Virus record (IMG/VR): IMGVR_UViG_3300027733_000040
Span: 32,989 to 96,988 of that record
From: a virus
Strand: one strand, 5' to 3'
Length of the DNA stretch: 64,000 nt
The translations under genes and the position numbers were made by a program. This document shows positions 2,906-50,981 of this stretch, piece after piece; position 1 is the first letter of the stretch; the number at the start of each line of letters is the position of its first letter. The notes under the pieces were generated by a model. That model saw only the letters and a list, made by a program, of their open reading frames with translations. It did not search any database and was not told where the DNA came from.

Positions 2906-4720
2906 ATGTTAGAAATCAAATCGGTTAAGTGGCGTAATTTTCTTTCATATGGTGATTATGAATCGGTATTATCTCTTGAGGATCCTGGGAGCTGCTTAAT
3001 AACAGGTGAAATAGATTCTGGCAATTCGCCCCAAGTCGGCTCAGAAGATATTCGCAAATCTAATGGTTCTGGTAAGAGTTCTATTCCAAATGTCGTATTG
3101 TGGGGCCTATTTGGCCGTACCATGCACGCTTCGTCAGCTGGTGATTCGATCATTAATCACTTTACTGGCAAGACTTGCGAAGTTATAATCGATTTTAAAA
3201 ACGGTGATCAAATTATCAGGCGTCGTCAAAAAGGCGGCACTACGGAAGTGTTGTTTAGTAGAGATGGCGATGAAACTAGGATTTCAGCCGACACCGTTTC
3301 TACATCTAAAGCCATGCAATCGCAGCTTAATAAGACCTTCAATCTCGACTATGATATATTTTGTGGTAGTGTTTTCTTTAATCAATATGGCCGTTCGTGG
3401 ATGGAAATGAGCGAAGTCGCGAGGAAAAAGGCTTTAGAAAAAATTCTAAGAGTCGATAGGTTTAGCTTCTATGCCAAAATTGCTAAAGCTAAATCTGACA
3501 ATGCTCAATTTCTTTTTACAAATTTTAAATCTAAAATTATAGACCTTGAAGCCAACAGAGATAGGACGATAAGTGATATCCAGTCTTATCGCGAAGAAAG
3601 TGGCGCCTATGAAATCAAGAGAGCCAAAAGGATATCTGATATAGATGCTATGATCGCTACTGTCAATGAAAAGATGAATAAGATAACCATACCAGATATA
3701 GATAAGTTAACCGAAAAGTGGAAGTTAATAGAAAAGATTAAAGCTGAAATCGATAGATTAAAATCTGAAGATGCTGGACATTTTAGAACTATCGCTACCA
3801 TAGAATCGAATATAGCCGTCTTAAAAAAGCGACGCGATGAGGTTAACAAGCTACAGGGCAAGAGTTGTGTCGCTTGCCAACAATCTATACCATCAAGCAT
3901 GATAACAAATAATCTTGACAAGATTGAAAAAGAGTTAACTACATTTGGTGTGCAATTAGCCGATGCTACCGCCGCTAGAGAAGAGAGCAATAAGGTTATT
4001 AAGAAGTACGAGACTATGTTATCGGCTAAAATACCTAACATCACCATTATGGAAGCTAATAACCTATCAACCATAGTTTTAAATTATAAAGCTGAAATCA
4101 AAAGATTAATGGCGCTACGGGCAGAGACCGAGACCGACAGCGACCCTAATCAGACAATCATAGAGAGGCTAGAAAGTAGGTTAAAAGATATCCTCGACAA
4201 TATTTTAAAACACAAAAGCGATTTAGAAGATATTACGGTGTTAGATAAGCATTATACTTATTTATATAAATCTTATAATGACAGAAATAAAGTAAAAAGC
4301 TTTATGTGTGAAGAGCATCTTCCTTATATTAATTCTCGCCTAGAACATTATTTAGGCATTTTAGGTCTAGATATTAAGATAAAGATCGAGAACGATCTTA
4401 GAATCACAAGTAACATGTGGGGCTATGAATATCAGTCAGGCGGCGAAAGAAAAAGGACAGATCTTGCATTTATGCTTGCGTCTTATGATTTTTATGAAGT
4501 AATGTATGGTAGGCAATGTAATTTGATGGTTTTAGATGAGGTCGATGGCAGGATGGATGAGGATGGGATAGAAGGTCTGATAAGTATCATAAGAAATGAT
4601 TTATCATCAAGAATAGACAACATATTAATTATCTCACACCGTAACCAAATGTTTGATGTTTTTGACAGAGAACTAAAGGTAAAAAGGATTAACAGATTTT
4701 CTATACTATCTGGAAATTAA
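2906..4720 (+). CDS. gp46/SbcC/Rad50-like recombination endonuclease ATPase subunit
   Basis: WRNFLSYG, Walker A SNGSGKS, coiled coil with CVAC zinc hook, signature SGGE, Walker B LMVLDE, ISH loop. Confidence 0.92.
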   Translation: MLEIKSVKWRNFLSYGDYESVLSLEDPGSCLITGEIDSGNSPQVGSEDIRKSNGSGKSSIPNVVLWGLFGRTMHASSAGDSIINHFTGKTCEVIIDFKNGDQIIRRRQKGGTTEVLFSRDGDETRISADTVSTSKAMQSQLNKTFNLDYDIFCGSVFFNQYGRSWMEMSEVARKKALEKILRVDRFSFYAKIAKAKSDNAQFLFTNFKSKIIDLEANRDRTISDIQSYREESGAYEIKRAKRISDIDAMIATVNEKMNKITIPDIDKLTEKWKLIEKIKAEIDRLKSEDAGHFRTIATIESNIAVLKKRRDEVNKLQGKSCVACQQSIPSSMITNNLDKIEKELTTFGVQLADATAAREESNKVIKKYETMLSAKIPNITIMEANNLSTIVLNYKAEIKRLMALRAETETDSDPNQTIIERLESRLKDILDNILKHKSDLEDITVLDKHYTYLYKSYNDRNKVKSFMCEEHLPYINSRLEHYLGILGLDIKIKIENDLRITSNMWGYEYQSGGERKRTDLAFMLASYDFYEVMYGRQCNLMVLDEVDGRMDEDGIEGLISIIRNDLSSRIDNILIISHRNQMFDVFDRELKVKRINRFSILSGN

Positions 4721-5282: not shown

Positions 5283-5648
5283 TTATTTTAAAAATTTTAA
5301 TTTATAAATGGTTTTATACATCAGGGAACTTATCTCCTGCATAATATTTCCGAGATGCCCGCATCCTTCCGGCATTTTCTCTGAAATTTTTGATACTTCT
5401 GATGCAAAAGATTCGAGGTATTCTACAATGTCCGTGTACTCTAGAAATAATTTATCTATTGGTTCTATTAATCCGAATTGTCCTTGATAGGTTTCAATTA
5501 ATTCGTCTGTTAATCCTAGCAATCCGTCATATAGTTCATTCAATGCTATATGTGCTGAAAACATATCTGTCTTTAAATGTTCATTATGCGCGATCTGCCT
5601 TGTCGAAAACAATTTAATGAACATCTTTTGCATTAAACCCTTGTCCAC
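5283..5648 (-). CDS. ferritin/Dps-like four-helix protein (DUF5856-like)
   Basis: AHNEHLKT..AHIALNELYD..DELIETYQG..LGNIMQEI..YKL pattern; AAGGAG before the GTG start. Confidence 0.75.
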   Translation of the reverse strand: MDKGLMQKMFIKLFSTRQIAHNEHLKTDMFSAHIALNELYDGLLGLTDELIETYQGQFGLIEPIDKLFLEYTDIVEYLESFASEVSKISEKMPEGCGHLGNIMQEISSLMYKTIYKLKFLK

Positions 5649-5697
5649 AGTATTCTCCTTATTAGTAGTAAATAATGTTATTTACCGAGGGCTGATA

Positions 5698-6312
5698 TTG
5701 GTAAGTCACATTATTTTGGCAAATTGTTCTGTAGAGTATGACGGTAGAGGCCTAAGCAATTTATCGAGCGGTGTCTACCTAATTGTTATTAAAGCCGATG
5801 CGTCGTTGCAGATACACACATCGAGGCTTATAAAGCCTATTAACTATATGGCGGCTGGGTCTAGAATCGATTTCGATGGCGATAATATAATAGCGAGGAA
5901 TCGATCAGAAACGATAAAAATCAAGATAAGCAATACGATTCATTCATTTAGCCCTGCCGAGTGGCACGATAATAAGATACAGATGCTAAGGACTGAAGCT
6001 GAATTAGTCCAGAAGTTACTTGTCGAACTTAATGCCGATTATCCAAACGATGAATATATTCAAGAGTATGACACAAAATCGCTTGGTTTAATCGATCTTG
6101 TTAGAATCGATTCTTTTTCAGTTTATCATTCTTATGAAGTTAAAAGGAAAAAGGCATCTATAGCTAATGTTTCACAGGCCATAAGATACGTAGAATATTT
6201 ATCAGCTATTAATAAGAAATGTGTAGGATATATAGTGGCTCCAAGTATTACTGAGAATGCTTTGGAATACGCCGAAAGTAAACATATAATAGTCAAGATA
6301 ATTGACTTCTGA
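5698..6312 (+). CDS. nucS: NucS/EndoMS mismatch-specific endonuclease homolog
   Basis: N-terminal ANCSVEYDGR..LIVIKADASLQIH..KPINYM matches NucS; C-terminal E..IDL..EVKR..SQAIRY nuclease motif; TTG start at 5698 with GAGGG upstream (ORF track starts at 5617). Confidence 0.85.
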   Translation: MVSHIILANCSVEYDGRGLSNLSSGVYLIVIKADASLQIHTSRLIKPINYMAAGSRIDFDGDNIIARNRSETIKIKISNTIHSFSPAEWHDNKIQMLRTEAELVQKLLVELNADYPNDEYIQEYDTKSLGLIDLVRIDSFSVYHSYEVKRKKASIANVSQAIRYVEYLSAINKKCVGYIVAPSITENALEYAESKHIIVKIIDF

Positions 6313-10005: not shown

Positions 10006-10776
10006 ATGGCAAACTATTGTGATAGCGCCGTTTTGGAGAAAACCTGGTACCTTTGGATACTGGGTTCGTCACACCCAGATCTTGAACAATACAGGGCCTA
10101 CAATTTATTGTATACAAAACCCTGTTCGCCGGCAATGGTTGACGGGAAAATTCTTAAAAAACATGGGAAGGAATTGCTTGACCCTAGATCTGAGTATAAA
10201 ATACATTGCTTAGCCCTTCCTATCCCCGTTTTTTTCAAATCCCGTAATAACATTGTAACAGGTCGATATCGTCTTTGCAATATCTCTTCTAAGACTCCTT
10301 TCACACTAGATAGACGTTTGTTCACTATGGATAATATGTTTATGGGAAATGCGCTTAAGAACAACATATTTAAGCAGAAGTTAGAAGTGATCCCTAAGCT
10401 TTTAGAAGAAGGGTATATCAAAGAGCAACCGACTTCGGCATCATGGCATGACCTTCTTGCTGATATTGGTAAGATGTGCACAGGGATTAGTATGCGTTTT
10501 AATCTCTTGAATGACGACGAATATAGTGATCTCTCAAATGATGCACTATTACAAGTGATAAATAAATTAGTTAACAATAGGTTAGTATATACCCCCGGAA
10601 GAGCACCGGTATTTAATTTACTTACCACTACCATACATCGTTGTATGTTTAGTCTGCTTAATAAAAAGAATAGTCAGAAAGCTGGTTTAAATAAATTATT
10701 GTCAGATTCTCAATATAATCTTATACCAAAAATTAATAGGAGTCTTAAGACCCTGACACATAACCCGAGAAAATGA
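10006..10776 (+). CDS. gp55-like late sigma factor
   Basis: N-terminal NYCDSAVL and C-terminal IGKMCTGISMRF..DLSNDALLQVI..YTPGRAPVFNLLTTTIHRCMF resemble the T4 gp55 region-2 core. Confidence 0.55.
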   Translation: MANYCDSAVLEKTWYLWILGSSHPDLEQYRAYNLLYTKPCSPAMVDGKILKKHGKELLDPRSEYKIHCLALPIPVFFKSRNNIVTGRYRLCNISSKTPFTLDRRLFTMDNMFMGNALKNNIFKQKLEVIPKLLEEGYIKEQPTSASWHDLLADIGKMCTGISMRFNLLNDDEYSDLSNDALLQVINKLVNNRLVYTPGRAPVFNLLTTTIHRCMFSLLNKKNSQKAGLNKLLSDSQYNLIPKINRSLKTLTHNPRK

Positions 10777-10777
10777 C

Positions 10778-11767
10778 ATGAGATATAATAGGGCCATTTC
10801 GCCTAATGCTGTACACAGCTCCCATCTGCTGACAAGATTAAAAGCTCAAGCTGTTAAAGTGTCTATTGTAAATGGTCCTCAGCCAGGTGTGCGCCACCAG
10901 CAGCGTTCTGCTCCTTTACCTCCTAAGCCCGAAAAGCCACCCACGAAGATCCAAGATAGTGCAAGAGTTGCGCCCAAGAAGGCGGGGGCAGTCGAAGTTC
11001 GCCAGCAGCAGGCGATGCAAAGACAGGATATAAAGAAAAAGCGAGAGCCACGTGTTACTTATGTATCACGGACAGTTGACCCGATCTACCTAGAAAAGAC
11101 AAAAGCCTTAAAAGATACCGGCCGAGGAAAAACGCTTATAATAATAGGCAATGGGCCGACGCTTAATGAGGTTGATTTAAGGGGCCTTAAACATAAACCA
11201 GGTATAGAATTTCTATCTGTGAATTATCCTGATCCTAGATTATGGCCAACTGACTATTGGGCTTTCTTTGATTCATCTCAGATTCAGCGACACGCTGCTC
11301 TTTGGGATGAATTCAATGGAACCATCTTTAATTCTTCGTCGATACAAAGACGAAAGACAGGGACCATCCAATTCAGAAATATAGGTGTTAAATCATTTAG
11401 TAAGGATTTAGTAGATGGTTTATGCATAGGCAGAAGTAGCGTATTCGCTAGCATGCAAATCGCGCTTTGGATGAATTTCGATAAGATATACATTTTTGGC
11501 GTCGATATGAACCCATCGACAGATTTAAAGAAATTACATTTTTACGGAACAAATCCTGACGTATTACCAGAAAATAGGGCAAAAAGGTTTGAAAAGGAAG
11601 CGGAATACTATGTTACAGCTTTTGAATCGATGTCAGAGAAGGAGAGAAGTAAGTTTACTTTCTGCAGCTCTGTTAACCCATGGCCCTTTATGTCTATGTT
11701 TAATAAACTAGATCATAAGGTCGCTGCGTCCGAAATTTTACGTGATTATTTAAACCCCAAGGAGTAG
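10778..11767 (+). CDS. DUF115/MAF_flag10/MptE-like nucleotide-dependent transferase with disordered N-terminus
   Basis: IIGNGPTL, LSVN, SSVFASMQIALWMNFDKIYIFGVDM..HFY. Confidence 0.65.
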   Translation: MRYNRAISPNAVHSSHLLTRLKAQAVKVSIVNGPQPGVRHQQRSAPLPPKPEKPPTKIQDSARVAPKKAGAVEVRQQQAMQRQDIKKKREPRVTYVSRTVDPIYLEKTKALKDTGRGKTLIIIGNGPTLNEVDLRGLKHKPGIEFLSVNYPDPRLWPTDYWAFFDSSQIQRHAALWDEFNGTIFNSSSIQRRKTGTIQFRNIGVKSFSKDLVDGLCIGRSSVFASMQIALWMNFDKIYIFGVDMNPSTDLKKLHFYGTNPDVLPENRAKRFEKEAEYYVTAFESMSEKERSKFTFCSSVNPWPFMSMFNKLDHKVAASEILRDYLNPKE

Positions 11768-11774
11768 AAGGTCG

Positions 11775-12164
11775 ATGACTAAGATTTACGTTGCATCAAG
11801 TTTATATAACAAAACCAATGTTAAGGCACTCTATAAATATCTTGCTTATTTACAATGTACTATTACTTATGATTGGACCACTCATGGTGGTGTAAATGAT
11901 GAGGCTTCGCTTAAAGAGATCGGGCTCAAAGAATACCAAGGTGTTGTCGATTGTGATGTTTTGGTTATGTTAATGCCTGCGAGGCTTGGTTCGCATGTCG
12001 AGCTTGGTATAGCTTTAGCGCTCTGTAAACCGGTCATTATTATTACTAACGGTGAAGATTTCGAGAAAAAGTCATTTTATTTCTTAGACCATGTAAATAT
12101 TATCAGAGATATTGATGCTCTAAAAGGCGCACTTGATAAAATCACGGAACAAGAAAATGACTAA
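11775..12164 (+). CDS. nucleoside 2-deoxyribosyltransferase / nucleotide N-glycosidase family protein
   Basis: KIYVASS, DCDVLVML, GSHVELGIA (catalytic Glu), KPVII. Confidence 0.8.
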   Translation: MTKIYVASSLYNKTNVKALYKYLAYLQCTITYDWTTHGGVNDEASLKEIGLKEYQGVVDCDVLVMLMPARLGSHVELGIALALCKPVIIITNGEDFEKKSFYFLDHVNIIRDIDALKGALDKITEQEND

Positions 12165-12834
12165 TGGCGAACTGCTCACCAGAATAGAAATAGATGTTTT
12201 CCAAGGAAACGAAATCCTAGAATCCTTTGAATTAGCTCATAAGTACCGTCTGCCTGCGATCATAGTACATCCTTCATTAAGCTCTGATGCTTTGGTTTGT
12301 AGAGGCAGATCAAAAGGGAAGTATAAGATCATCACGCCGGTAGATTGGCCTAGGGGTGAAGTCTTCTCTACAGATAAGTTCAAGGGTCTAAGCTTAGATT
12401 CTTTAGAGACCGATGGTTTTGAGATATACATATCGCCAAAAAAGCAAAAGGGCGATATCAGAAAAGAAATAATTTCGTGTACAGAGTTTTTAAAGAAGTT
12501 TATTGGCGAGCTTTGTGAAATAAGATTCGTCATAGGCACAAGGACTAAGGATGAAGCTGATCTAGCGAGTGCTTATGAGGCCTTTCGTGATCTAAAGACA
12601 CCGACTTTAATTCGAGACGATATCTCCTTGAAGACTCAGAATTACAAGGCCAATCCAGCTATACACAGCGCTTTTATCACCAACATGTCGCAATTCTTAA
12701 AATGCCCGATAAAAGTAAGTGGTAATCTTGACTGTATTGAAGATTTACTGGCCTGCGAACCTGCAAAGCGATTTGGTGCCAGTCTTCAGCAGACCAAAGG
12801 CATAATTAGAAGTATTAATACGGTGAAAAAATGA
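12157..12834 (+). CDS. DeoC (deoxyribose-phosphate aldolase)-like TIM barrel, catalytic Lys apparently substituted
   Basis: AHKYRLPAIIVHP, ITPVDWPRG, IKVSGN and RFGAS align to DeoC motifs; FVKTSTG is replaced by LIRDDIS. Confidence 0.65.
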   Translation: MTNGELLTRIEIDVFQGNEILESFELAHKYRLPAIIVHPSLSSDALVCRGRSKGKYKIITPVDWPRGEVFSTDKFKGLSLDSLETDGFEIYISPKKQKGDIRKEIISCTEFLKKFIGELCEIRFVIGTRTKDEADLASAYEAFRDLKTPTLIRDDISLKTQNYKANPAIHSAFITNMSQFLKCPIKVSGNLDCIEDLLACEPAKRFGASLQQTKGIIRSINTVKK

Positions 12835-13127
12835 ACATTATTGAAATATTAGACCAGTTAGATGATGATATCGGTCTTTTATTTAAGACCGAGCAATGGT
12901 TACATTCAGAAAAATCGCGTGTGTCAGCTGAAGCTTCTGACATACTAAACAGATTAAAAGCAATTGACAATGCTATAAATCTGAAGAAGGTATTGAATAA
13001 CATAGACATTGGGGCTTTAAGGCATGCCTACGATGATGGTTTCCACGGAAAAGAAAATTTAATGCTTGAATTGATCAAATCCTATCTGAATAATTCTTCG
13101 GCGGAGGCTCAAGATGCAACGCGGTAA
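12831..13127 (+). CDS. hypothetical coiled-coil protein
   Basis: ATGA overlap with the upstream gene and overlap with the purZ-like gene. Confidence 0.65.
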   Translation: MNIIEILDQLDDDIGLLFKTEQWLHSEKSRVSAEASDILNRLKAIDNAINLKKVLNNIDIGALRHAYDDGFHGKENLMLELIKSYLNNSSAEAQDATR

Positions 13128-14313
13128 GTTCAATGTGGTTACTGATGGTCAGTTCGGTAGCACCGGAAAAGGGCTGATCACTTCTTACCTTGCACAAAAA
13201 CACAGACCCGAATTTTTATCAAACACCAATATGGCCAATGCTGGACACACAGCCGTTAATGTAGATGGCACTGCTTATATCGCTAAAGCAATGCCATCGG
13301 CTGCGATATTAAGAAAATGGCTACCTGATTACAATCCTTGGATAATAATGGGTTCTTCTTCTGCATTTACGCTACCGCAGCTAATGAAAGAAGTCGAAAT
13401 AACTGGAAGTGTCGATAGGCTTATTATTCACCAAAGAGCTATGGTGATCACAGAAGAGCACAGGCAAAGGGAAAACGAAGGCAAGGATAGCACAAAGCAT
13501 TTAGCGAGCACGATGCAGGGCTGTGGGGCCGCCATAGCAGACAAGATCCAAAGATTGCCAGGGACCAAGCTTGCAGTTGATTACGAAGAATTAAGTCGAT
13601 TTGTATTTTGCAAAACGTGGACACGACCTTCTTCTATATTAGAGGATATGTCTCTTTTTGATCCATTTAATGTGATGTGTAAACACCATTGTGAAGCCCT
13701 ACACGAATACATTGACTGTGTACTCAGGGCTACGTTCACTTTTCTCCACGAAGGCGCTCAGGGATTTTCGCTTGATATCAATCATGGCCACTCATATCCT
13801 ACTTGCACTAGCCGCGGTACATCGGCAATTCAGAATTTAGCCGATATGGGTATTTCGCCCAAGTTCCTTGGTGATGTATATCTGGTACTTCGACCATATC
13901 CAATAAGAGTTGGCAATGTGATCGAAGATGGTGTTCAGCAAGGGTATTCTGGTGGTGGTTACGATGACCAAGTCGAAATCGATTGGGAAGAAATAGCAAG
14001 AAAATCTGGGATGCCGCTAGAGTACGCTACGATATTAAGAGAGAAAGAGAAAACCACCGTTACAAAAAGGGTTAGAAGGGTGTTTTCTTTTTCTAAAAGG
14101 CAACTGCGTGAGGCCGTGATGGTGAATGGTGCCACTAAATTAGCTCTTAATTTTGCTAATTATATCGACTGGGCTTGCTTTGCATCATCATCAAAAGACA
14201 AACTTACCCCAAAGATCCTTGATTTTATAAAAATGCTCGAGGATGTCGCCGGAATACCTGTAACGCTTGTTGGAACTGGCCCACAATATGACCACGTCAT
14301 TGACCTATCGTAA
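13114..14313 (+). CDS. purZ: PurZ-like N6-succino-2-amino-deoxyadenylate synthetase (PurA paralog)
   Basis: DGQFGSTGKG (Ser in place of the PurA Asp), NAGHT, EGAQG, YPTCTSR, YPIRV, TTVTKRVRR, LNFANY; GGAGG RBS. Confidence 0.8.
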   Translation: MQRGKFNVVTDGQFGSTGKGLITSYLAQKHRPEFLSNTNMANAGHTAVNVDGTAYIAKAMPSAAILRKWLPDYNPWIIMGSSSAFTLPQLMKEVEITGSVDRLIIHQRAMVITEEHRQRENEGKDSTKHLASTMQGCGAAIADKIQRLPGTKLAVDYEELSRFVFCKTWTRPSSILEDMSLFDPFNVMCKHHCEALHEYIDCVLRATFTFLHEGAQGFSLDINHGHSYPTCTSRGTSAIQNLADMGISPKFLGDVYLVLRPYPIRVGNVIEDGVQQGYSGGGYDDQVEIDWEEIARKSGMPLEYATILREKEKTTVTKRVRRVFSFSKRQLREAVMVNGATKLALNFANYIDWACFASSSKDKLTPKILDFIKMLEDVAGIPVTLVGTGPQYDHVIDLS

Positions 14314-15079
14314 TAATCTAGAAGTCTCGGCTTGCATCGACGAACATCATGATAATATTGATGAATCTATAGATCTAATTAGAGCTACTGGATTTAAATC
14401 AGCGTCTATACTTAATATAAATGGATTGTCGCTCACTTCTTTACCAGACATTACTATAGAGAGAATTAAGAAAAGACTATCGGATATGCCGATAAATGTC
14501 ATAAGGATAGAGTTAGGTCATGGAAAAACAATAGCTCCAAAAGATATAGACAAAGAATTATCGATAGCTTCTTATTTTAAAGCTAAGGCGATCCAAATCG
14601 GCATCGAAAAATCATCATTTCTCGATAAGGCGAGTTTCGATGATTTTATCAGTAGATTATCATCATTTGCTGTGTCGATGTCATTAGTACCGATATTAGA
14701 AATGACTGATCATATGTTTATTGACACACCAGCCGATCTCGATAAATTCTTATCGTCACATAAAAGAATTAAGTTATCTTATGATCCATGCCGTTTTATG
14801 GAAAGAAGCAATAAAAATCCACACGAACGCTGGTTTGAACCTCTTAAGACGAGTGTTTACAGTATAATAGCAAGAGATTTTAAAACAGGCTCCGGTTTTT
14901 ATCCTATTGGCCAAGGCGCTACCAATATTGTTAAAGCTATAGATGAGCATATTTTAAACGGTGGTAGATACGCTATATTTAGACCGTCACTTGGAAGACG
15001 GTATGGTAGCACAGTCGGAAAGAAAGAAACATTTAAGTTAGCTTTGGAAGTGTTTAATAATCTATTCAGGAGTATTTAG
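14288..15079 (+). CDS. xylose-isomerase-like TIM barrel (sugar-phosphate isomerase/epimerase family), degenerate metal site
   Basis: CIDE..IDESIDL, ILEM, YDPCRF, ARDF, PIGQG pattern. Confidence 0.6.
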   Translation: MTTSLTYRNNLEVSACIDEHHDNIDESIDLIRATGFKSASILNINGLSLTSLPDITIERIKKRLSDMPINVIRIELGHGKTIAPKDIDKELSIASYFKAKAIQIGIEKSSFLDKASFDDFISRLSSFAVSMSLVPILEMTDHMFIDTPADLDKFLSSHKRIKLSYDPCRFMERSNKNPHERWFEPLKTSVYSIIARDFKTGSGFYPIGQGATNIVKAIDEHILNGGRYAIFRPSLGRRYGSTVGKKETFKLALEVFNNLFRSI

Positions 15080-15741: not shown

Positions 15742-16266
15742 ATGAAGATAACTAAAGTTAATATATCCTTACCAAAGGTCGCTCAAAAGCACGATTATGA
15801 CTGCGGAGCTGCAGCTTTAAAGTCGATATATGAATATGAACACCCAGAAGACAAAAACGACTTATCAAAGTATACCAGATTATTAGGTAGCACTAAAAAT
15901 AAAGGGACAAGCACGCAAGAATTAGTTGCAGCTTGTAAGTTATTAGGTCTTAACTTTAAAGAATACCATGGCATGTCACTTTCTAGGCTGCATAAAGAAA
16001 TTAAGATCGGAAACCCGATACTTTGTCTCATAAGATCGAATGATCATGGCCACTTCGTAGTGGCTTTGGGATGTGATGATGATAATATCTATTTCGAAGA
16101 TCCTTTTAAAAAGAAAAATAACGGCTATTTGCCTAAAAAAGAATTTTTCGAAAGATGGACAGATGGCGATAACCATAGCGATCTTAAACGGTTTGGATTG
16201 ATTTTTAAGGTATCGCGTCCAAAAACAAAAAAGAAAATTACAGCCTATAAGATTTTAGGAAATTAA
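15742..16266 (+). CDS. C39-family cysteine peptidase
   Basis: Q....DCGAAAL, GT, GHFVV, EDP (Cys/His/Asp catalytic triad). Confidence 0.85.
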   Translation: MKITKVNISLPKVAQKHDYDCGAAALKSIYEYEHPEDKNDLSKYTRLLGSTKNKGTSTQELVAACKLLGLNFKEYHGMSLSRLHKEIKIGNPILCLIRSNDHGHFVVALGCDDDNIYFEDPFKKKNNGYLPKKEFFERWTDGDNHSDLKRFGLIFKVSRPKTKKKITAYKILGN

Positions 16267-16267
16267 T

Positions 16268-19200
16268 ATGGCAGATAATACAGATATAACGAGATCTAAT
16301 TATGTCGAATTAATCTCTGTAGATGTCGATTCAATGCTAATGGTGTGCAATGATAAGTACAAGACCGTTGAGAGCAGCTTGCCTAGGATTTTGAACGGTA
16401 TAGATTATCAGGCTTGTGATGCGCTTGCTGTTGTTGCGCCGCCAACAAATAAATTTGTGACAAATGTAGAAAATGTTCCAGGGTCTTTAAGAGAATTAGT
16501 AAGACGACCCAATGTTATTCTCACATCGTTTAACGCTATTAGTTTTTTAGGTCAGGATATTAATTTAGACACCACCGATAATATACCAACTATCACGTCG
16601 ACTATTCCGACTCTGCCTGATATTAATTGCCAAAAATTTGGCACTTCGGTCTCTTGCAAGAAGAATAGTGACAAATGTTCCATCGATTTGCATTTTATAG
16701 ATGCTTCGAGTTTAAATACCGGCATTGCCCCAGGCAGAGCGTTACTCCAGACCAACAAGGCCCTGCTTAGCGGTGGGTATGATTATCGATTGGCTATATC
16801 TAAAGTCAGAGGCACACCAGAATATATCGGGTTTTTCGCTGGTAAACAATACTATAAGCTTTCACTAAATACATTAAAGGGTTTTTGGGATAATTCTTGT
16901 GAGAATGACAGGATGATGGTCGATAAGTATGCCGCAATGGTTTCGGAGCCTGTTAATTCTTCTACAGTAAATCTAATCGGTGTTTCAACTGCTAACGCTT
17001 TTACATATGGTTTTAATAGTCAGTCATATGGTAGTCTTAGTAATATTGCAGTCTCATCCATAGTGAGATCTGTCGGGTTTAAGATGGAGCTGGCATTAAC
17101 CAGTTCAGGTAAGGCGTTAGATGGAAGCTGGCGGTTTGATCTTGCGCCGGCCAGTGGCCTTAACCTTAACCCTATGTTTAACACTAGCGGTCGCACGGGG
17201 CCATTAAATTATCAAATATTAATCGATTCGACTAAAAATCTATCGGGAATGGCCGATAATGATTTTTCTTTAAACGGTGCTGATCTTAAAAAAGTAGAGC
17301 CTTCGGATTATCTGCGATTTAGATCCTTAGCGACTAAGATCTTTTGCATTTATGTAGATCATCGTACTACTGGATTAGCATTAGACGATAACTTTAATTT
17401 TATAGATTCTGCGGTCGGCGGCTCAGACCAATTTGAGGCATTTAGGCAAGCCATACAATGTGGCCATAAGTTTTTGTTTATTTTAAATGACGAAACGATA
17501 AGCGCGTCCCAAGATTACTATAATTTTGTAGCGTCAGTCGGTATTGCTAGCGCAGCGGTTGTGCTAATAGATAGTCAGACCGCAGCGGGCGGTGAATACT
17601 TTGACCAGATATTTAGCTCTATAAATACTTTGTGCGGTTATGTTGGTCCTAACACGACACCAGGTGTATCGGCTTTTGGCTCTGTTAAGGAATTATGGCA
17701 GGGAGGATCGCTTTTTAAAGGTTCTAATCTTAAATCATTAACTCACTTCAAGATAAATAGTAGCTACACGTCACCAGACACGACTCCGCGGATACCTGAA
17801 GTATTAACTAACAATGAATCTTTAATTAGTTATGATTCTGTATTCGATAGGATTCTTTATATTGAGCAATCAGACGATTCCGTCTATAGATTATTTGCCA
17901 TGAATATGAAAACACGTGAACGTTCTGCAATTGCACCTTTACCTTTTTTGTTCGATATTGTGATAGGTTTAGACAGCAATGTTCCTTCAGTCCAAATGTA
18001 TGACCCTGGAATGCGGTTATTTTTCATTGGTACTAGTTCTGGACATCTATATTCGGTCGATGTTACGACCGGAAAATCGTCAGAGATCGTAATAAACTCG
18101 ATAGACTTTGTGCCAAGGCCAGAGCGGCGATATCCATCTATTACAGGGATTGGTATAGGGTATGTTCCATCTTACGATTACAATGGGGTTACTGATTTTT
18201 CTGGCCATCGTGCACTGTTTGTAGGATTCAATGCCGCAGGTTCGAATGATATCAAGCGTTATAGTATCTTGCGATCTTATGTTTATGATGTGTTGGTCTT
18301 TAATAAAACAGGGATAGCATCAAAAATAACACCATTAGTAAGTCTTGATTTGCCTTTGGCTGGAATGGCGAATCTGCGCAGTTTTAGTTTTATGTGTGCT
18401 CCAGTTTTTAATTATCTTATTAAGAATTTGCCTGCCACACCGGTCTCAGAATTTGTTTCAAACCAGAAATTGCCTGGTCTTTTGTTATGTTATGATATTA
18501 TGGACACCAACCAGAATCAAATAACACCGGAATCTGGACGTTGTGTTGCGATAAATCCGTTGATTCTCAATAAAGTGTTTGCGAGTCAAGCAAGCATCCA
18601 ATATAACATATTAGATACTTTTATTATACCGGCTTATTATCCTGTTACCAATCGTGCCGATTGGGTTACGATTGACGATTTTGGCGGCTCGGTTATCTGG
18701 TCCTCATTAGACATTACGCCCACGAAAACAGTCCTCGATTATTATTATGTGCCGGTACCTCCTGCTGGCGTTGACAATAAAGGCATCGAATTTTTCCCTT
18801 CTCTTGCTGTTTTATTAAATAGCTATGAGGCTGGCGGCAATGTTAGTAGTATTTTCTTCAGAGATTCTTTAGAATGTTCCGTTGGTGTAAAGGGTGTCGA
18901 GAGGCATGACTTTGGGCCTAAGAATATGAATTGTTGGGACCTTAGTAATAGTGCTTCAGCCCCTGTGTCTGATTCTTTTGTCGGTAATGAATTAGTTCTT
19001 AGATACGGAGAATCTGTTAGTAAAAATTATAACCTCGAGGCCGGAAAATACTTTGTCACTATAACCACTTCCGATTATCGCATAGGTACTGACGATGCTG
19101 GGCAAAATCTTACTGGTCTGGTTGATATTATTACTTCTGGAGGTAGCAGGTTCCATTATCTGCCAGCGCGACTAGATTCGACACCATTGGAAAAATTAAA

Positions 19201-22200
19201 GGTGCAATCGGTCCCTTTTCAAGGCGTTAACCCAACAGCTATAACCACAGCTGGATCATTAACCTACTTATTTGATATGCCAGCAGCGTTTAATATTACA
19301 CTTAAGAATAATTTAAAACCAGGGGCGATTACTTCTGAATTCGATAACACTAAATTCATTCCTCGTGGCGTTGGTGTCTACGGTATTAAGTTATGCAAGC
19401 TTCTTGATCAAACAGTTATATTAGATGGTATAAAGGATGTAAAATTAAACATCTCAGTTACTGGTATACCACGCCAAGAAGTGAACATTTTTTCGGCATT
19501 TGTTAAGGTGACTTACAGAGATTATGGAAGGCCAAATGTTAAAAAGGTCGCTTATCGCGAAGTCATTACGGACGGGCGTTCATCGCCGTATGCTGGTAAC
19601 AGCGTGCCTGTCGATTGTGACTATAGCGACACATGCAATTATTGGAAACAAAACGGCAATGGCGGCATACCCTCACAGTATGTGCTAAATCAGATTAGAC
19701 ACAGCGATTCACAGATGGAATCGACTACCAATTTTAAAATAGTCGATGTTACGTTATATAATAATTGCATCTGGTGTATACCAGCTGGATCGAGCAGGTT
19801 TGATCAAGCTACTGGAAAATATGTTCCGACAGATACCGCAGATACTTATACCATATTCTTTGGTGATTTTAAAACAGATATGATTGTAGAATCTATAGAG
19901 TATTTCTTCTTAGTTAATAAGATAGTCGATACTTCGAGTACCCCGCCAACTTGTGTCGACAATAAATCAAATTGCAAACCTGACCCAGCAACAGATATTG
20001 TAGTCCACTTAGATTACACTAATTGTAACAAAGAAATTAAGAGATTAACTCGAACTATAAATATCGGTTCTATAGTAGCAATAGAGCATGATCTTAGTAA
20101 AGTATTTCCTAGCAGTAGATGGGATTATATTAGACCACCATCTTCAAACGGAACGGCTTTGGGGCCACCAATTGGAAATGCTATTAACGGCAAAATAGGT
20201 GAATGGATATCATTTAAAGAGATTCTAGATAATACGACCGGTACTGGCGCTGACCAGTGTTCCGCCCCTATTTCTAATCAGTTGATATATAATGGTACTT
20301 CTTTAACTTCCGATCGCCCTACTGGCTGCGATATTCCAAATCCAAAAATCGGTGCTATAAGCCTTTTTGCTAAAAAAGTAAAACCTGCATTTGTCATAAC
20401 TGACATATCTGAGACTTCTCTAACAAATGAAATTCAATATATTACAATACCGCAAGCCGATGGTGGCATCTTTAAGCTTACTTTTGCTAAAAATGGTGTA
20501 ACCCAGACGGTGACTGTTCCTTATAATGTAACAGCCGCTCAGCTAAAGACTATTTTAGAAGCGAACACGCTAATTGGTCCTAACAATGTTCTAGTTACAG
20601 CGGTCGGCACAAAAAGTTATAAGATTGAATTCGTTGGAGCATTAAAAGGTTTAGCTATTCCGATTATGAAACCCATAAGCGATGGTCTTATTGGAACGTA
20701 TTTTGCTTATACAAGTCGTTCAGTGGTTGGCACCAAAAACGAGAGGCAAACCATAAGCAATGTTTCTGCTTCTAACAGAGCTTTTACCATTTTTTTTGCC
20801 GGCCAACAAACGGTAACAATTCCATACGATGCTAGTTTGAATACTGTCAGGGCCGCTTTGTCTGCATTGCCTTCAATCGGCGGCGGGAATGTTGCTGTTT
20901 CTGGCCAGACTACTAATTATGATGCCCCTTATACTGGCCCATGGAACATTGATTTTATAGGCACTTTTGCAGGAAAGAATGCATCTAGGCTCTCCACATC
21001 TAACAAGGACTATGTTGTTTATGTCGATTGGGTCGGTGGTATAGGTGTTAATGAAGTGCAAAAATTCAGCTACAAGGCCAATTCCGGTAGATTTAGTCTA
21101 TCATTGTATGGACCGACTGGTGCTTTTTGTACAACAGCGCCGATCGAGGCCACAGCTACCAATAGCGATATAGTTAAGAGTATAGTAGCAAATTGTAGTT
21201 TTTATGCTGCTGAAGACATTGGGTTAACGTTAGTCCAAAACGGAAATGTTTACGACTGGACTATAGAGTACAAAGGCAAGGCGACAGCCCAACCTGTTAA
21301 GCAGATAGGTATACAATCAGTCGATCTTGTCGGTGACGAAGTCACTGTTGTTAGAGTAGAAAAAGGTGGCGGTAAGCCACAAAAGATTAGATGGTCGTAT
21401 ACAAATGCCACAGCAGGTTTTTATATTTTAAGATTCGAATCAATCGATAAGCATATTTATTTTTCAGACAGGATATATTATAACGCTACGGCGGCAGAGA
21501 TACAGACGATCATAGAGAGTATGACTTTATTTGCGCCTGGTGACGTGACGGTTGTCCAATTAGACATAGGTGTTGTTGGGTCATACGAATATGTGCTTAC
21601 TATTAAAAAGAAAATAAGTGCACTACAAGTTACAGCCATTTTTGAGACCACGTTATTTGGAAGCCCAATTTCATATTATATCGTGCCTGATGGGCCATAT
21701 CCTTACCCATTGCCTTATTGTCCGTCTTTGACGCCTAAGATACATGGTGTTGATGGGTTGGTCTGCGTGCCTTTTCCTCCCGAGGAGGGCGATCCTTTTG
21801 CAGATGAGATATGCTGTACCCCAGAGACCATATCTAGCGCTGCAAATAAATCGACATTCTTTAAGATCGAAAGAGATCTTTTCAGTCCTAGTTTTCAGAT
21901 TAATGGTAAGTTAGCCACTGTGGGTTCGCTTATGGCGGCTAGGAATTTTAAGAAAAGCATTTATAAACCTTACTATTTAGTATCTAATACCTGTGTCGAC
22001 CTTGTCGAGGCGAAATACACAGATGAAATTAAGAGCCGGACCATTATCGTGATTATTAATAAGAAGGTCGATCTTGAAGTCCCTAAGATCAGAATTATAA
22101 ACCGCATCAAGAGTAATTATCCTAAGCTTGATTATTGTAGAGCTTTATCTTTTGAGAAAAACAAGGGTGGTCAGGATTTTCCAGATATATTGCCAGATAA

Positions 22201-22216
22201 AAACTATAATATATAA
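16268..22216 (+). CDS. giant (1982 aa) putative virion or fiber protein with C-terminal repeats
   Basis: long beta-rich ORF; propeller-like central part; four ~104 aa repeats. Confidence 0.6.
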   Translation: MADNTDITRSNYVELISVDVDSMLMVCNDKYKTVESSLPRILNGIDYQACDALAVVAPPTNKFVTNVENVPGSLRELVRRPNVILTSFNAISFLGQDINLDTTDNIPTITSTIPTLPDINCQKFGTSVSCKKNSDKCSIDLHFIDASSLNTGIAPGRALLQTNKALLSGGYDYRLAISKVRGTPEYIGFFAGKQYYKLSLNTLKGFWDNSCENDRMMVDKYAAMVSEPVNSSTVNLIGVSTANAFTYGFNSQSYGSLSNIAVSSIVRSVGFKMELALTSSGKALDGSWRFDLAPASGLNLNPMFNTSGRTGPLNYQILIDSTKNLSGMADNDFSLNGADLKKVEPSDYLRFRSLATKIFCIYVDHRTTGLALDDNFNFIDSAVGGSDQFEAFRQAIQCGHKFLFILNDETISASQDYYNFVASVGIASAAVVLIDSQTAAGGEYFDQIFSSINTLCGYVGPNTTPGVSAFGSVKELWQGGSLFKGSNLKSLTHFKINSSYTSPDTTPRIPEVLTNNESLISYDSVFDRILYIEQSDDSVYRLFAMNMKTRERSAIAPLPFLFDIVIGLDSNVPSVQMYDPGMRLFFIGTSSGHLYSVDVTTGKSSEIVINSIDFVPRPERRYPSITGIGIGYVPSYDYNGVTDFSGHRALFVGFNAAGSNDIKRYSILRSYVYDVLVFNKTGIASKITPLVSLDLPLAGMANLRSFSFMCAPVFNYLIKNLPATPVSEFVSNQKLPGLLLCYDIMDTNQNQITPESGRCVAINPLILNKVFASQASIQYNILDTFIIPAYYPVTNRADWVTIDDFGGSVIWSSLDITPTKTVLDYYYVPVPPAGVDNKGIEFFPSLAVLLNSYEAGGNVSSIFFRDSLECSVGVKGVERHDFGPKNMNCWDLSNSASAPVSDSFVGNELVLRYGESVSKNYNLEAGKYFVTITTSDYRIGTDDAGQNLTGLVDIITSGGSRFHYLPARLDSTPLEKLKVQSVPFQGVNPTAITTAGSLTYLFDMPAAFNITLKNNLKPGAITSEFDNTKFIPRGVGVYGIKLCKLLDQTVILDGIKDVKLNISVTGIPRQEVNIFSAFVKVTYRDYGRPNVKKVAYREVITDGRSSPYAGNSVPVDCDYSDTCNYWKQNGNGGIPSQYVLNQIRHSDSQMESTTNFKIVDVTLYNNCIWCIPAGSSRFDQATGKYVPTDTADTYTIFFGDFKTDMIVESIEYFFLVNKIVDTSSTPPTCVDNKSNCKPDPATDIVVHLDYTNCNKEIKRLTRTINIGSIVAIEHDLSKVFPSSRWDYIRPPSSNGTALGPPIGNAINGKIGEWISFKEILDNTTGTGADQCSAPISNQLIYNGTSLTSDRPTGCDIPNPKIGAISLFAKKVKPAFVITDISETSLTNEIQYITIPQADGGIFKLTFAKNGVTQTVTVPYNVTAAQLKTILEANTLIGPNNVLVTAVGTKSYKIEFVGALKGLAIPIMKPISDGLIGTYFAYTSRSVVGTKNERQTISNVSASNRAFTIFFAGQQTVTIPYDASLNTVRAALSALPSIGGGNVAVSGQTTNYDAPYTGPWNIDFIGTFAGKNASRLSTSNKDYVVYVDWVGGIGVNEVQKFSYKANSGRFSLSLYGPTGAFCTTAPIEATATNSDIVKSIVANCSFYAAEDIGLTLVQNGNVYDWTIEYKGKATAQPVKQIGIQSVDLVGDEVTVVRVEKGGGKPQKIRWSYTNATAGFYILRFESIDKHIYFSDRIYYNATAAEIQTIIESMTLFAPGDVTVVQLDIGVVGSYEYVLTIKKKISALQVTAIFETTLFGSPISYYIVPDGPYPYPLPYCPSLTPKIHGVDGLVCVPFPPEEGDPFADEICCTPETISSAANKSTFFKIERDLFSPSFQINGKLATVGSLMAARNFKKSIYKPYYLVSNTCVDLVEAKYTDEIKSRTIIVIINKKVDLEVPKIRIINRIKSNYPKLDYCRALSFEKNKGGQDFPDILPDKNYNI
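20426..21660 (+). repeat. four ~104 aa protein repeats (NExQxIxxxxAxxGxFxLxF...T..IxY.AT...I...LE...G.V.V...Y.IEF.G)
   Basis: repeat starts at 20426, 20738, 21050 and ~21370 (312 nt spacing for the first three); visible only at protein level. Confidence 0.75.
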
Positions 22217-25016: not shown

Positions 25017-26004
25017 TTTAAAAAGAGAATCGATATTAATCACAGGTGGTGCTGGTTTTTTAGGTAACAAAGTCGTCCAATGTTTCATGGAAAACGGTTT
25101 TGGCTCAGAATGTGTAAGAGGCCAGAAAGCCAGACCTAATAATGTTTATATTAATCGATCAGTATTATTCGATCTTACTATTGAGTCACATGTTTCAGAA
25201 TTGTTCAGCCGTCTATCGCCTACCATAGTTATACATCTAGCTGCTGCTGTCGGTGGTATCGGTGCTAATCAAAAAACACCAGGTTCTTTTTTTTACAAAA
25301 ATGCCATGATGGGGATACTTCTACAAGAGTATGCTAGAAGGCATAATGTTAAAAAGTTCGTTACTATCGGCACAGTTTGTTCATATCCTAAATTCACGCC
25401 ATCACCTTTTAAAGAATCAGATTTATGGAATGGCTATCCGGAAGAGACAAATGCGGCCTACGGCATCGCAAAAAAAGCCTTGCTTGTGCAGAGCCAAGCC
25501 TATCGCCAAGAGTATGGCTTTAATGGGATTCATCTGTTGCCCGCCAACTTGTATGGTCCGCTTGACAATTTTGATGATAGCACATCACATGTTGTCCCAG
25601 CGATCATCAAAAGAATCTACGAGGCCAAAAGAGACAAATTAGATCATGTAACCGTTTGGGGCGATGGTTCACCCACTAGAGAATTTCTATATGTGGATGA
25701 TGCAGCGAGAGGTATAGTGCAAGCTACCTCGACATATGATAGTCCTGAACCAATAAATTTGGGATCAGGGAGAGAGATTAGCATAAAAGATTTAACGACC
25801 AAGATAGCTCAAATAATTGGATATGATGGTCTAATAAAATATGATCATTCAAAGCCCAACGGGCAGCCTAGGAGGAGCCTCGATAGTACGCAGGCAGCAC
25901 TAAAATTTAATTTTCAGACGACCACTGATCTTGACACAGGGCTAAAAACTACTATTGATTGGTATATTGATCACATTTCTTCTATTGGAGCAGTTAGAAA
26001 ATAA
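24988..26004 (+). CDS. fcl: GDP-L-fucose synthase
   Basis: TGGAGFLG, HLAAAVGGIGAN, YGIAKK, NLYGPLDNF..SHVVPA, WGDGSPTREFLYVDD, KPNGQPR. Confidence 0.92.
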   Translation: MNIKENLANNLKRESILITGGAGFLGNKVVQCFMENGFGSECVRGQKARPNNVYINRSVLFDLTIESHVSELFSRLSPTIVIHLAAAVGGIGANQKTPGSFFYKNAMMGILLQEYARRHNVKKFVTIGTVCSYPKFTPSPFKESDLWNGYPEETNAAYGIAKKALLVQSQAYRQEYGFNGIHLLPANLYGPLDNFDDSTSHVVPAIIKRIYEAKRDKLDHVTVWGDGSPTREFLYVDDAARGIVQATSTYDSPEPINLGSGREISIKDLTTKIAQIIGYDGLIKYDHSKPNGQPRRSLDSTQAALKFNFQTTTDLDTGLKTTIDWYIDHISSIGAVRK

Positions 26005-26005
26005 A

Positions 26006-26803
26006 ATGAAAAGTCGTATTGAACGTGTTCTTCCAACCGCTTATCTTATAGGTCAAACGACACTTGATTTAGATCAATTAACCAAATATCTCGAAGATAC
26101 TGACGCCAAGCCATTCGTTAGAGAAGTAGAAGAAGCAAGATTTTCTGGTGTGTCTGATATGGAGATTATTTGTTCCGTATATGCTAAATTATGCTATAAA
26201 TCTTTTGTCGTTGGTACGAATAAAAACATAACAAGAACGAGATCTATAAAGGATAACATCAAAGGATGTTTCGATGTTAAGCATGGCAGCATATTCGAGC
26301 ATGTTTTCTTTAATTTTATCATTAAAGATTGTTCAAGGATTTTTACACATGAGCTTGTACGACACAGGGTCGGCACAGCCTTTAGCCAAAATTCTGGGCG
26401 CTATATTAGAGAAGATGTGATACGTGTTGTTCTTAGCCCAGACATAGAGCATTCAAAAAAGATCGACGCTATCTTAGAGAATATCTGCGCCGGTTATGAT
26501 GAGTTAGATTATGAATTAGATATCGATTCTACTATAAGGTTCGACGAAAAGAAAAAATTAACCAGTTCTATCAGACGAATCCTGCCTAATATGTGCGCTA
26601 ATGACATAGGTTTTACTGTCAATGTCCGAGAATTAAGACACATACTTTTGATGCGTACTTCCCGCCATGCCGAATGGGAAATGCGGTATGTTTTTGACAA
26701 GATTTATAAATTATTACTACCAAAATATGGTGCCTTTTTCCATGGTTTGCATGTAGGGTCACATGAAGGATATGTAGAGATTACTGAGGAGCCTTATGTA
26801 TAA
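26006..26803 (+). CDS. thyX: FAD-dependent thymidylate synthase
   Basis: HGSIFEH, RHR-x7-S-x-R signature (RHRVGTAFSQNSGRY), NVRELRH, HAEWEMR. Confidence 0.92.
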   Translation: MKSRIERVLPTAYLIGQTTLDLDQLTKYLEDTDAKPFVREVEEARFSGVSDMEIICSVYAKLCYKSFVVGTNKNITRTRSIKDNIKGCFDVKHGSIFEHVFFNFIIKDCSRIFTHELVRHRVGTAFSQNSGRYIREDVIRVVLSPDIEHSKKIDAILENICAGYDELDYELDIDSTIRFDEKKKLTSSIRRILPNMCANDIGFTVNVRELRHILLMRTSRHAEWEMRYVFDKIYKLLLPKYGAFFHGLHVGSHEGYVEITEEPYV

Positions 26804-27356
26804 AATAACTTTAGAAAGGCTCAATGGTAACGATTTGCCGCTACCTAAATTCGAGACAAGTGGTTCTGCGTGTTTTGACATATCAGCATGTTTAACACGT
26901 CGGATGTCTGAATGCTTACTAAATGGAAGAAAAAAGCATTTTTTATATAAATGGCATGCTACGAATTTAAGGAAGTATGTTGAAGGACTAGAAGATGTAT
27001 TTTCTGAAGAATCAGAAATGTCACGGTTATACATTCATCCTAACGAAACCATTTTGATACCAACTGGATATAAAGCATCATTTGCTTCAGATTTAGTGTT
27101 AAAATTATACATCAGGTCTTCTATCGGTTTAAATGGTCTCAATCTAGCTAACCAAGTAGGGATTATTGATTCTGATTATCGTGGTGAGATCTTTATAGCT
27201 ATAAAAAACAATTCTGACATCGCCCAGACTATAAACCACGGTGACCGTATCGCCCAAGCAATGCTTGAATGTATAGTTAAACCAGAGATCATTGCTGGTG
27301 TCGTTGATCCCACAGCGCGCAATGATGGTGGTTTTGGCTCTACTGGAAGAAAATGA
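26796..27356 (+). CDS. dut: trimeric dUTPase with insertion
   Basis: all five motifs: SACFDI, RSS, GIIDSDYRGEI, GDRIAQ, RNDGGFGSTG. Confidence 0.93.
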   Translation: MYKITLERLNGNDLPLPKFETSGSACFDISACLTRRMSECLLNGRKKHFLYKWHATNLRKYVEGLEDVFSEESEMSRLYIHPNETILIPTGYKASFASDLVLKLYIRSSIGLNGLNLANQVGIIDSDYRGEIFIAIKNNSDIAQTINHGDRIAQAMLECIVKPEIIAGVVDPTARNDGGFGSTGRK

Positions 27357-50330: not shown

Positions 50331-50981
50331 ATGGACACAGACTTAAACACTTTTGATCCTGAGCAAGTTTTTACCATTTGCCAAGATATTTACAAGGGCT
50401 TTGGTATAGATCTCAAGTTTCCTAAAGCCAGAGACGTCACCAAGACTTATCAATACCGGTATTTAACAGCTATCTGCGATAAATTCATACAGTGGGATCT
50501 TGATCTAAATGAGGTCAAGAGATTTCTTGCTATTGCCATAGGTAATTCTTTTAAGCACAAAACGATTAAAAAGGGTCTATCGGCATTACATCAGAAGAAT
50601 CTCCTGCAGATATCTTATGAACAATTGATCAGTAGTAATAATACCCTATCACAAATCGACCAGACATCTCAGTCTGTTTATCTGTTTCTAAAGCAGTTTT
50701 GTGATGAAAAAAGTGCTTACACGATCCTTAGCAAACGCGAAGGGCCACGATCTAATATGGTATTAACGAATTTATTTCAAGCTGGTAAAATAAATATCGA
50801 ATTTTTGGCTATCAATAATTTGTGTAGGAGAATTGCAATGGATGCAATTTCAAAAGATTTACAGGACGCAATGTTCTTGCCAACTCTCGGAAAGCTCTAT
50901 GTCGTAAATCGAGATCTTTCTGCGAACAATGCTAATTTTACTAATTTTAAAACCATAAAGGAATGGGGTTCACTTTCATGA
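50331..50981 (+). CDS. hypothetical protein
   Basis: 216 aa ORF overlapping the RNR start. Confidence 0.65.
   Translation: MDTDLNTFDPEQVFTICQDIYKGFGIDLKFPKARDVTKTYQYRYLTAICDKFIQWDLDLNEVKRFLAIAIGNSFKHKTIKKGLSALHQKNLLQISYEQLISSNNTLSQIDQTSQSVYLFLKQFCDEKSAYTILSKREGPRSNMVLTNLFQAGKINIEFLAINNLCRRIAMDAISKDLQDAMFLPTLGKLYVVNRDLSANNANFTNFKTIKEWGSLS

Follow-up and report, generated by a model that had tools for sequence, protein, structure and literature searches.

The 64,000-nucleotide stretch analyzed here (the window) lies within a 96,988-bp IMG/VR record, IMGVR_UViG_3300027733_000040 (CheckV completeness, 27%), that comes from an uncultured giant phage of >300 kb. At positions 13114 to 14313, it carries a homolog of PurZ, the succino-amino-deoxyadenylate synthetase of phages with 2-aminoadenine (Z) in their DNA. 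We propose that this gene probably encodes an ATP-dependent PurZ-type synthetase that uses deoxyguanosine monophosphate (dGMP) and belongs to a distinct jumbo-phage clade. The protein is a member of the PurZ family with an intact set of PurZ-type catalytic and ligand-contact residues, the gene is under purifying selection, and the clade is widespread and has a conserved gene neighborhood. By homology, dGMP and ATP are the most likely substrates.

Genes for a tail sheath, for gp15-, gp19-, and gp25-like proteins, and for a T4-type portal place the window in a myovirus. Contigs of up to 314,743 bp hold proteins of the same 90%-identity cluster as the PurZ-type protein. When 20 kb of the window was compared by megablast with 50,697 phage records, no match was returned. 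The open reading frame (ORF) starts with ATG and has a GGAGG motif 6 nt upstream. Compared with relatives at 87% nucleotide identity, it shows 139 synonymous and 16 nonsynonymous differences, corresponding to a ratio of nonsynonymous to synonymous polymorphism (pN/pS) of 0.033. Therefore, the gene is functional and under strong purifying selection. A preliminary description of this DNA had quoted the ORF and four motifs, all of which we found at the residues given, and had proposed a PurZ-like enzyme in a large myovirus, which is borne out by a Ser in place of Asp13, an ATP-type pocket, and the tail and portal genes.

Family assignment and active site

Pfam family PF00709 (adenylosuccinate synthetase) covers residues 8 to 347 of the protein (1.5e-32), and PHROG 1211 matches at 2.6e-64. 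Among PDB entries, phiVC8 PurZ (6FM1) matches at 9e-44, S-2L PurZ at 4e-38, and Escherichia coli PurA at 8e-16. To locate the active site, we used an alignment of structure-guided quality that contained PurZ from phiVC8, S-2L, SH-Ab 15497, and Bm1, PurZ0 from Wayne and Ghobes, and E. coli PurA. The gene and its motifs are as follows.

13114 to 14313, plus strand: PurZ-type succino-amino-deoxyadenylate synthetase homolog of 399 amino acids (P0001), assigned from Pfam, PDB, PHROG, hidden Markov model (HMM), tree, and pN/pS evidence
13156 to 13173, plus strand: P-loop GSTGKG, residues 15 to 20, with Ser16 in place of the PurA catalytic Asp13
13237 to 13251, plus strand: NAGHT, residues 42 to 46, the phosphate/catalytic His loop common to PurA and PurZ and an intein site in homologs
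13897 to 13911, plus strand: YPIRV, residues 262 to 266, with Ile264 at the position of the PurA Thr (S-T-R-V), followed by the PurZ-type insertion GYSGGGY..W291
14053 to 14079, plus strand: aspartate/substrate loop TTVTKRVRR, residues 314 to 322, in which Arg319 corresponds to phiVC8 Lys267 and E. coli Arg303
14149 to 14163, plus strand: NFANY, residues 346 to 350, the adenine (ATP) pocket that replaces the PurA TKLD, together with G389-P390 (14278 to 14283)

Ser16 aligns with S14 of phiVC8, S23 of S-2L, and Asp13 of E. coli PurA, and G15, S16, K19, and G20 are invariant among 24 diverse representatives. Residues N346, F347, N349, Y350, G389, and P390 correspond to N305, F306, Q308, Y309, G335, and P336 of S-2L, which gives the protein an ATP-type pocket, and NFANY is identical in the ATP-using PurZ of SH-Ab 15497. 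The residues listed as dGMP and (d)ATP contacts in S-2L (PMC8342488) are all conserved, except for G130 and Y203, which are replaced by Ala131 and Thr230. A metagenomic dZ-enrichment study gave twelve phiVC8 residues that separate PurZ from PurA (F12, S14, I34, P144, P233, Y244, W252, G256, T262, S273, F295, and Y298). Ten of them are identical here (F14, Ser16, P149, P263, Y283, W291, T314, S325, F347, and Y350), and two differ, with Ser36 at I34 and Ala295 at G256. In the 120 closest clusters, the Ser and Arg319 are present without exception and NFANY is found in 115. The PurA signature is absent, since Ser16, Ile264, and Asn349 stand for Asp13, Thr, and Asp333. Likewise, the PurZ0 signature, which combines a GSEAKG P-loop with a GTP-specifying Asp, is replaced by GSTGKG and Asn349, the latter at the position of D326 in Wayne and D302 in Ghobes.

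Arg319 had been read in the preliminary description as the mark of a mosaic active site, on the premise that characterized PurZ proteins have the loop TTVTKLPRR. We found that this sequence is that of S-2L only. The loop reads TTVTKLTRR in SH-Ab 15497 and TTVTKKVRR in phiVC8, a single K-to-R change away from the window protein, and in Burkholderia phage Bm1 it is TTVTKRVRR, identical to ours. Of 150 representatives at 50% identity, 95 have R at position 319, 37 have K, and 7 have L, and 11 could not be scored, so that R or K occupies the position in 132 of the 139 scorable cases. Among the aligned enzymes, Leu occurs in S-2L and SH-Ab 15497 only. As the PurA of Pyrococcus horikoshii also carries Arg at the equivalent position and Arg or Lys is common in the family, Arg is the ancestral residue, which most members have retained or replaced by Lys, and Leu is exceptional. 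An ancestral and common Arg is diagnostic of nothing, and its use as a sign of mosaicism, a tempting but wrong signature, is corrected here. As read from the alignment, the active site is typical of the PurZ family and not mosaic.

The window protein shares with the PurZ proteins of phiVC8 (6FM1/6FKO), S-2L (7ODX), and SH-Ab 15497 the fold, GSTGKG, PIRVG and the SGG.Y..E..W insertion, the TTVT loop, and the NF.N/QY plus GP pocket. However, it is only 32 to 35% identical to them and is 40 to 56 residues longer than the phiVC8 and S-2L enzymes. It differs from classical PurZ by a helical insert at about residues 153 to 198, by nine extra residues after RVG, and by an archaeal-PurA-like segment (residues 296 to 311) and C-terminal region that are both lost in classical PurZ. 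P. horikoshii PurA (5K7X/2D7U) resembles it in its short architecture, in the segment before the TT loop, in an RRRV-type loop with Arg, and in a C-terminal ...PV.L..TGP...H.ID; indeed, residues 299 to 397 align end to end with this protein in the printed PDB alignment. In contrast, the archaeal enzyme keeps GDEGKG, FPTRVG, and TMLD and is without the PurZ insertion after RVG.

PurZ0 is reportedly a GTP-using variant, and its retained Asp is seen in our alignment; PDB entry 7VF6 is presumably of this type. The PurZ0 proteins of Arthrobacter phage Wayne and Gordonia phage Ghobes have the Ser for Asp13 and a Lys or Arg at position 319 in common with the window protein, but they are 26 to 28% identical to it and carry GSEAKG and TMLD or SFAD in place of GSTGKG and NFANY. 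In one published sentence, PurZ0 is said to prefer ATP and PurZ to prefer GTP. This sentence is probably inverted, because PurZ0 keeps the Asp and PurZ has NF.NY.

Phylogenetic position

More than 2,500 homologs of the window protein were retrieved at E ≤ 1e-10; the best 120 of these, on contigs that reach 438 kb, are 54 to 99% identical to it. Among 185,579 prokaryote species genomes, we obtained two matches only, both 44% identical and both on contigs of metagenome-assembled genomes (MAGs), from Methylobacter (L026) and Lentisphaeria (L027). The two matches probably stem from phage contigs that were binned into MAGs, not from cellular genes. Several homologs from large phages outside the window (P0123, P0124, P0128, P0136, and P0139) were found to carry inteins at two active-site motifs, between NAGH and T (before Thr46) and between YPx and CTSR (before Cys231). 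P0139, of 1,197 amino acids, has inteins at both sites.

We then built three trees, with FastTree (167 rows), with IQ-TREE in a quick mode (71 rows), and with a careful IQ-TREE run under LG+C20 with posterior mean site frequencies (PMSF; 51 rows). The jumbo-phage clade was recovered by all three, with support of 99/98 in the careful run. In the careful tree, this clade and the characterized PurZ grouped together to the exclusion of PurZ0 and bacterial PurA (98/94), a result in line with the FastTree and quick trees, and the window protein stood apart from bacterial PurA with support of 100/100. Thus, the comparison of PurA, PurZ0, and PurZ that the preliminary description had called for gave no clustering with bacterial PurA. 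Within the PurZ group, the jumbo clade forms a branch of its own that is less reduced.

The best match in a cultured phage is Bacillus phage vB_BpsS-140, at 36.7% identity. It has NFANYID and a long C terminus, as does the window protein, but falls in a different clade. The cultured Flavobacterium phage MaF61 (167.8 kb) also has a Ser-type P-loop and falls in a different clade. Its PurZ-like gene (L025, PQ858689.1, 118051 to 119394) has GSSGKG, continues after RVG with a very long insertion, and lies between scaffold and terminase genes. As a phage in culture, MaF61 might offer a way to look for Z in a large phage.

The gene module around the PurZ-type gene

Ten large IMG/VR contigs with only 47 to 56% PurZ identity have the same order of genes around the PurZ-type gene: genes for proteins of 256, 329, 129, and 233 amino acids, sometimes a small ORF, PurZ, and then genes for proteins of 270 and 174 amino acids. 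The module is under strong purifying selection, with pN/pS values of 0.01 to 0.11. A scan for promoters and terminators around it gave background levels. Its members in the window, besides PurZ, are the following.

10006 to 11767, plus strand: two conserved upstream genes, one of 256 amino acids without a match and one of 329 amino acids with a weak MptE-like match (pN/pS, 0.02 to 0.03)
11775 to 12164, plus strand: 129-amino-acid nucleotide N-glycosidase of the nucleoside deoxyribosyltransferase (NDT) superfamily, a candidate deoxynucleoside monophosphate (dNMP) hydrolase with a DmtZ-like role (Pfam, PHROG, and PDB profile)
12133 to 12834, plus strand: 233-amino-acid triosephosphate isomerase (TIM) barrel with the fold of deoxyribose-5-phosphate aldolase (DERA), from an AlphaFold2 model with a predicted local distance difference test (pLDDT) of 85 and Foldseek
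12831 to 13127, plus strand: 98-amino-acid ORF that overlaps both neighbors, kept in close relatives and weakly in relative L010 (pN/pS, 0.052)
14267 to 15079, plus strand: 270-amino-acid xylose-isomerase-like TIM barrel, a sugar/sugar-phosphate isomerase/epimerase fold (Atlas, AlphaFold2, and Foldseek)

The 129-amino-acid protein matches PHROG 7995 and, at 6.7e-6 and under the cut-off, Pfam PF05014 (pN/pS, 0.053). Its profile matches the CMP N-glycosidases MilB and BlsM in the PDB at 1e-5 and the deoxyribosyltransferases at 1e-3. All proteins in the alignment share Tyr5 and Glu76, and 7 of 8 have Asp61; the NDT catalytic set is found in its G-x-H-x-E-x-G context. BLAST detected no similarity between it and the proteins of cultured phages, and tblastn searches with it and with the DERA-fold protein against the 50,697 phage records gave no match. 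In PurZ0 phages, the NDT-family enzyme DmtZ acts in dAMP hydrolysis and dZMP synthesis (PMC12884076), and this role of DmtZ in the Z pathway of those phages is what gives the NDT-like neighbor its importance. Furthermore, NDT domains are enriched on dZ contigs (bioRxiv 10.1101/2025.10.22.683976).

The 233-amino-acid protein gave no sequence match in Pfam, in a PDB profile search, or with hhalign against E. coli DeoC. Its predicted fold, however, returned only DERA structures among the top ∼50 Foldseek matches (E, 5e-10; TM score, 0.73 to 0.81). By strand register, the invariant Arg161 appears to occupy the Schiff-base position on beta-6; Arg131 lies on beta-5, where DERA has a second Lys, and Lys194 is kept on beta-7. 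Since the position of the Schiff-base Lys thus appears to be Arg, the modeled barrel is probably not a class I aldolase, and we downgraded a scheme that ran from dAMP to deoxyribose 5-phosphate to aldol cleavage. Its gene is nevertheless the most constrained of the block (pN/pS, 0.010). For the 270-amino-acid protein, Atlas gave 0.95, with AP_endonuc_2 in 29 of 30 matches. Matches to PDB profiles were weak, and the AlphaFold2 model (pLDDT, 79) retrieved YcjR, UlaE, and ketose 3-epimerases with Foldseek at an E value of 4e-9. The true start of this gene is probably the ATG at 14288.

The search for helper and replication genes covered this 97-kb contig and four related records, among which is a complete genome of 355,825 bp that has terminal repeats. 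Each of the five records has one dUTPase-family gene, located here at 26796 to 27356. PurZ0 genomes have an NDT-family gene (DmtZ) and a dUTPase-family enzyme that hydrolyzes dATP and dGTP, instead of DatZ and MazZ (PMC12884076); an NDT-like gene and a dUTPase-family gene are likewise present here. The dUTPase of the window lies just under the NCBIfam dut cut-off (100.3 versus 103), has an N-terminal extension of ∼70 residues, and stands beside ThyX (25955 to 27356 for the pair). An HD-domain protein of the complete relative was considered as a DatZ analog and rejected, as it belongs to a PHROG of unknown function, is not in the other records, and fails the HD_3 and YfbR models. DnaE is split into two ORFs that lie just upstream of the window on the minus strand (G000:C1:125-319 and 1943-2188). 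The complete relative (G001) also has, at L029:1064-2245 on the minus strand and ∼9 kb from its PurZ, a 393-amino-acid ORF that matches the C-terminal palm of family-A polymerases only. Similar ORFs of ∼400 to 450 amino acids occur in three other relatives, not in this contig.

In the mechanism that we propose, the enzyme would phosphorylate O6 of dGMP, and aspartate would then displace the phosphate to yield N6-succino-2-amino-2'-deoxyadenylate. Host PurB and kinases would convert this compound to dZTP, which the phage, with its split DnaE replicase, would put into DNA. The clearing of adenine nucleotides, played elsewhere by DatZ and MazZ or by DutZ and DmtZ, may be taken over by the NDT-like N-glycosidase. 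A Z-DNA genome for this phage is plausible on these sequence grounds. More tentatively, a freshwater and marine lineage of jumbo myoviruses (300 to 440 kb) may replace adenine by 2-aminoadenine or a derivative of it, by means of the split DnaE and, instead of DatZ, MazZ, and DpoZ, a module with NDT-like, Lys-less DERA-fold, and sugar-isomerase-like proteins. This helper module is unlike any described Z cluster.

Alternative explanations and significance

A number of observations weigh against the proposal of a PurZ-type enzyme in a Z pathway. A grouping of PurZ with PurZ0 that excludes the jumbo clade is not rejected (approximately unbiased [AU] test, p = 0.20), so that although PurZ0 and the window protein sit on separate branches of the maximum-likelihood tree, their branching order is not firm. 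With the larger quick data set, this alternative topology even outscored the free search, and the root consists of bacterial PurA only, archaeal PurA not being in the tree. The curated PurZ model NF038379, although it is the best NCBIfam model for the window protein, gives 232.4 bits, below the cut-off of 300; relative L010 scores 221, and the controls score 397 (phiVC8), 350 (S-2L), 421 (SH-Ab), 320 (Bm1), 367 (Wayne), and 346 (Ghobes). MazG, YfbR-like/HD_3 (DatZ), DUF550, DUF5664, full-length DpoZ-type polymerase, and PolB were not found in the contig and the four related records, absences that rest here on a contig of ∼27% of the genome plus the complete relative. The only PolA-type sequence found was the divergent PolA-palm ORF of ∼390 amino acids, and the replicase is of the split DnaE (Pol III alpha) type in all five records. 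This jumbo myovirus differs from the phages of the characterized PurZ proteins in having a DnaE replicase and, in place of the association with datZ, mazZ/DUF550, and dpoZ, a different conserved module; what its two barrels would do in a Z pathway is not obvious.

Could the gene then be an ordinary PurA-type auxiliary metabolic gene that raises AMP synthesis from IMP, aspartate, and GTP? Pfam reports the generic adenylosuccinate synthetase only, and the sources name the protein "adenylosuccinate synthase." Nevertheless, the catalytic Asp13 that is 99% conserved in PurA (PMC12884076) is a Ser here, the GTP-specifying Asp333 is Asn349, and scores are far below cut-off both for the PurA model TIGR00184 (137 versus 395) and for the archaeal-type PurA model NF003295 (208 versus 368; PurZ, 131 to 143; PurZ0, 172 to 189). 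Together with the full separation from bacterial PurA in the tree, this makes such a role extremely improbable. We also find it very doubtful that the enzyme is a mosaic or intermediate in which, as the preliminary description suggested, Arg319 admits GMP as well as dGMP and a ribo-Z product is then reduced by a class II ribonucleotide reductase (RNR). Parts of that argument hold: Arg319 aligns with Arg303 of the E. coli enzyme, a residue in contact with O2' of IMP (PMC8342488), the phage does encode a class II RNR (50963 to 54343), and archaeal-PurA-like C-terminal segments are kept in the clade. However, besides the prevalence of Arg and Lys at this position, with Arg in Bm1 and Lys in the dGMP-specific phiVC8 enzyme, the side chain lies about 8 Å from C2' in solved PurZ structures (8.5 Å for the Lys of phiVC8), and the Val of RVG, pushed inward by the PurZ-specific insertion, has been proposed to exclude ribonucleotides through a clash with the 2'-OH (PMC8342488). 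Both Val266 and this insertion, nine residues longer than that of phiVC8, are kept in the window protein, and no ribo-Z-handling gene is evident. Thus, GMP use and the ribo-Z route have no basis in the sequence. The suggestion of an intermediate lineage stood in part: the score below the PurZ cut-off, the score with the archaeal model, higher than that of PurZ or PurZ0, and the P. horikoshii-like C terminus agree with it in architecture, whereas the argument from Arg319 does not, and the tree puts the protein on the PurZ side.

A further explanation, which we consider unlikely, is a new purine-modification pathway, in which PurZ chemistry, the N-glycosidase, and the DERA-fold and sugar-isomerase-like barrels make something other than plain dZ. 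Among the possible products are 2-aminoadenine, partial or modified further, a succinylated purine that stays in the DNA, and a small molecule derived from a nucleotide. The conservation of the whole module under purifying selection favors this explanation, as do the two sugar-type TIM barrels, for which there is no reported precedent in Z clusters, the lack of any canonical Z helper family in the records searched, the position of the protein outside the curated PurZ HMM, and the two divergent dGMP-pocket positions, Thr230 and Ala131. On the other hand, the known base, aspartate-loop, and ATP contact residues are otherwise of the PurZ type, the neighbors could equally serve to clear nucleotide pools, and no DNA-acting modification enzyme was identified adjoining the module.

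To our knowledge, chemically verified Z-DNA phages are all sipho- or podoviruses of ∼40 to 70 kb that have either a DpoZ of the PolA type or a PrimPol. The large myovirus described here falls outside the sipho- and podoviruses so far studied for Z. A 2026 survey of NCBI viruses distinguished seven groups of Z-DNA phages (PMC12884076). The presence of PurZ in metagenomic viruses is not new in itself, because >2,000 viruses are already stated in the literature to carry homologs; our literature search found no paper naming PurZ together with jumbo, huge, or mega-phages. If this clade makes Z-DNA, Z genomes would reach giant phages of a kind common in metagenomes from lakes and oceans, Z:T DNA would be copied by a replicase of the Pol III type, and a new set of enzymes, of interest for the engineering of xenobiotic nucleic acids, would clear adenine nucleotides. 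Such a lineage would represent a third Z-DNA system, assembled independently of the others, and the first from giant phages.

Other features of the window were also recorded. The class II (B12) RNR gene contains an intein that holds a LAGLIDADG homing endonuclease, and the T4-type portal gene (60511 to 63015) likewise has an intein. A NucS/EndoMS-like endonuclease with both Pfam domains (5617 to 6312) adjoins an SbcC/Rad50-like ATPase (2906 to 4720). Finally, two very large ORFs are without a Pfam family, one of 1,559 amino acids (39385 to 44064) and one of 1,982 amino acids (16268 to 22216). The latter is preceded by a C39-family cysteine peptidase (15742 to 16266) and shows ∼30% identity in two distant relatives.

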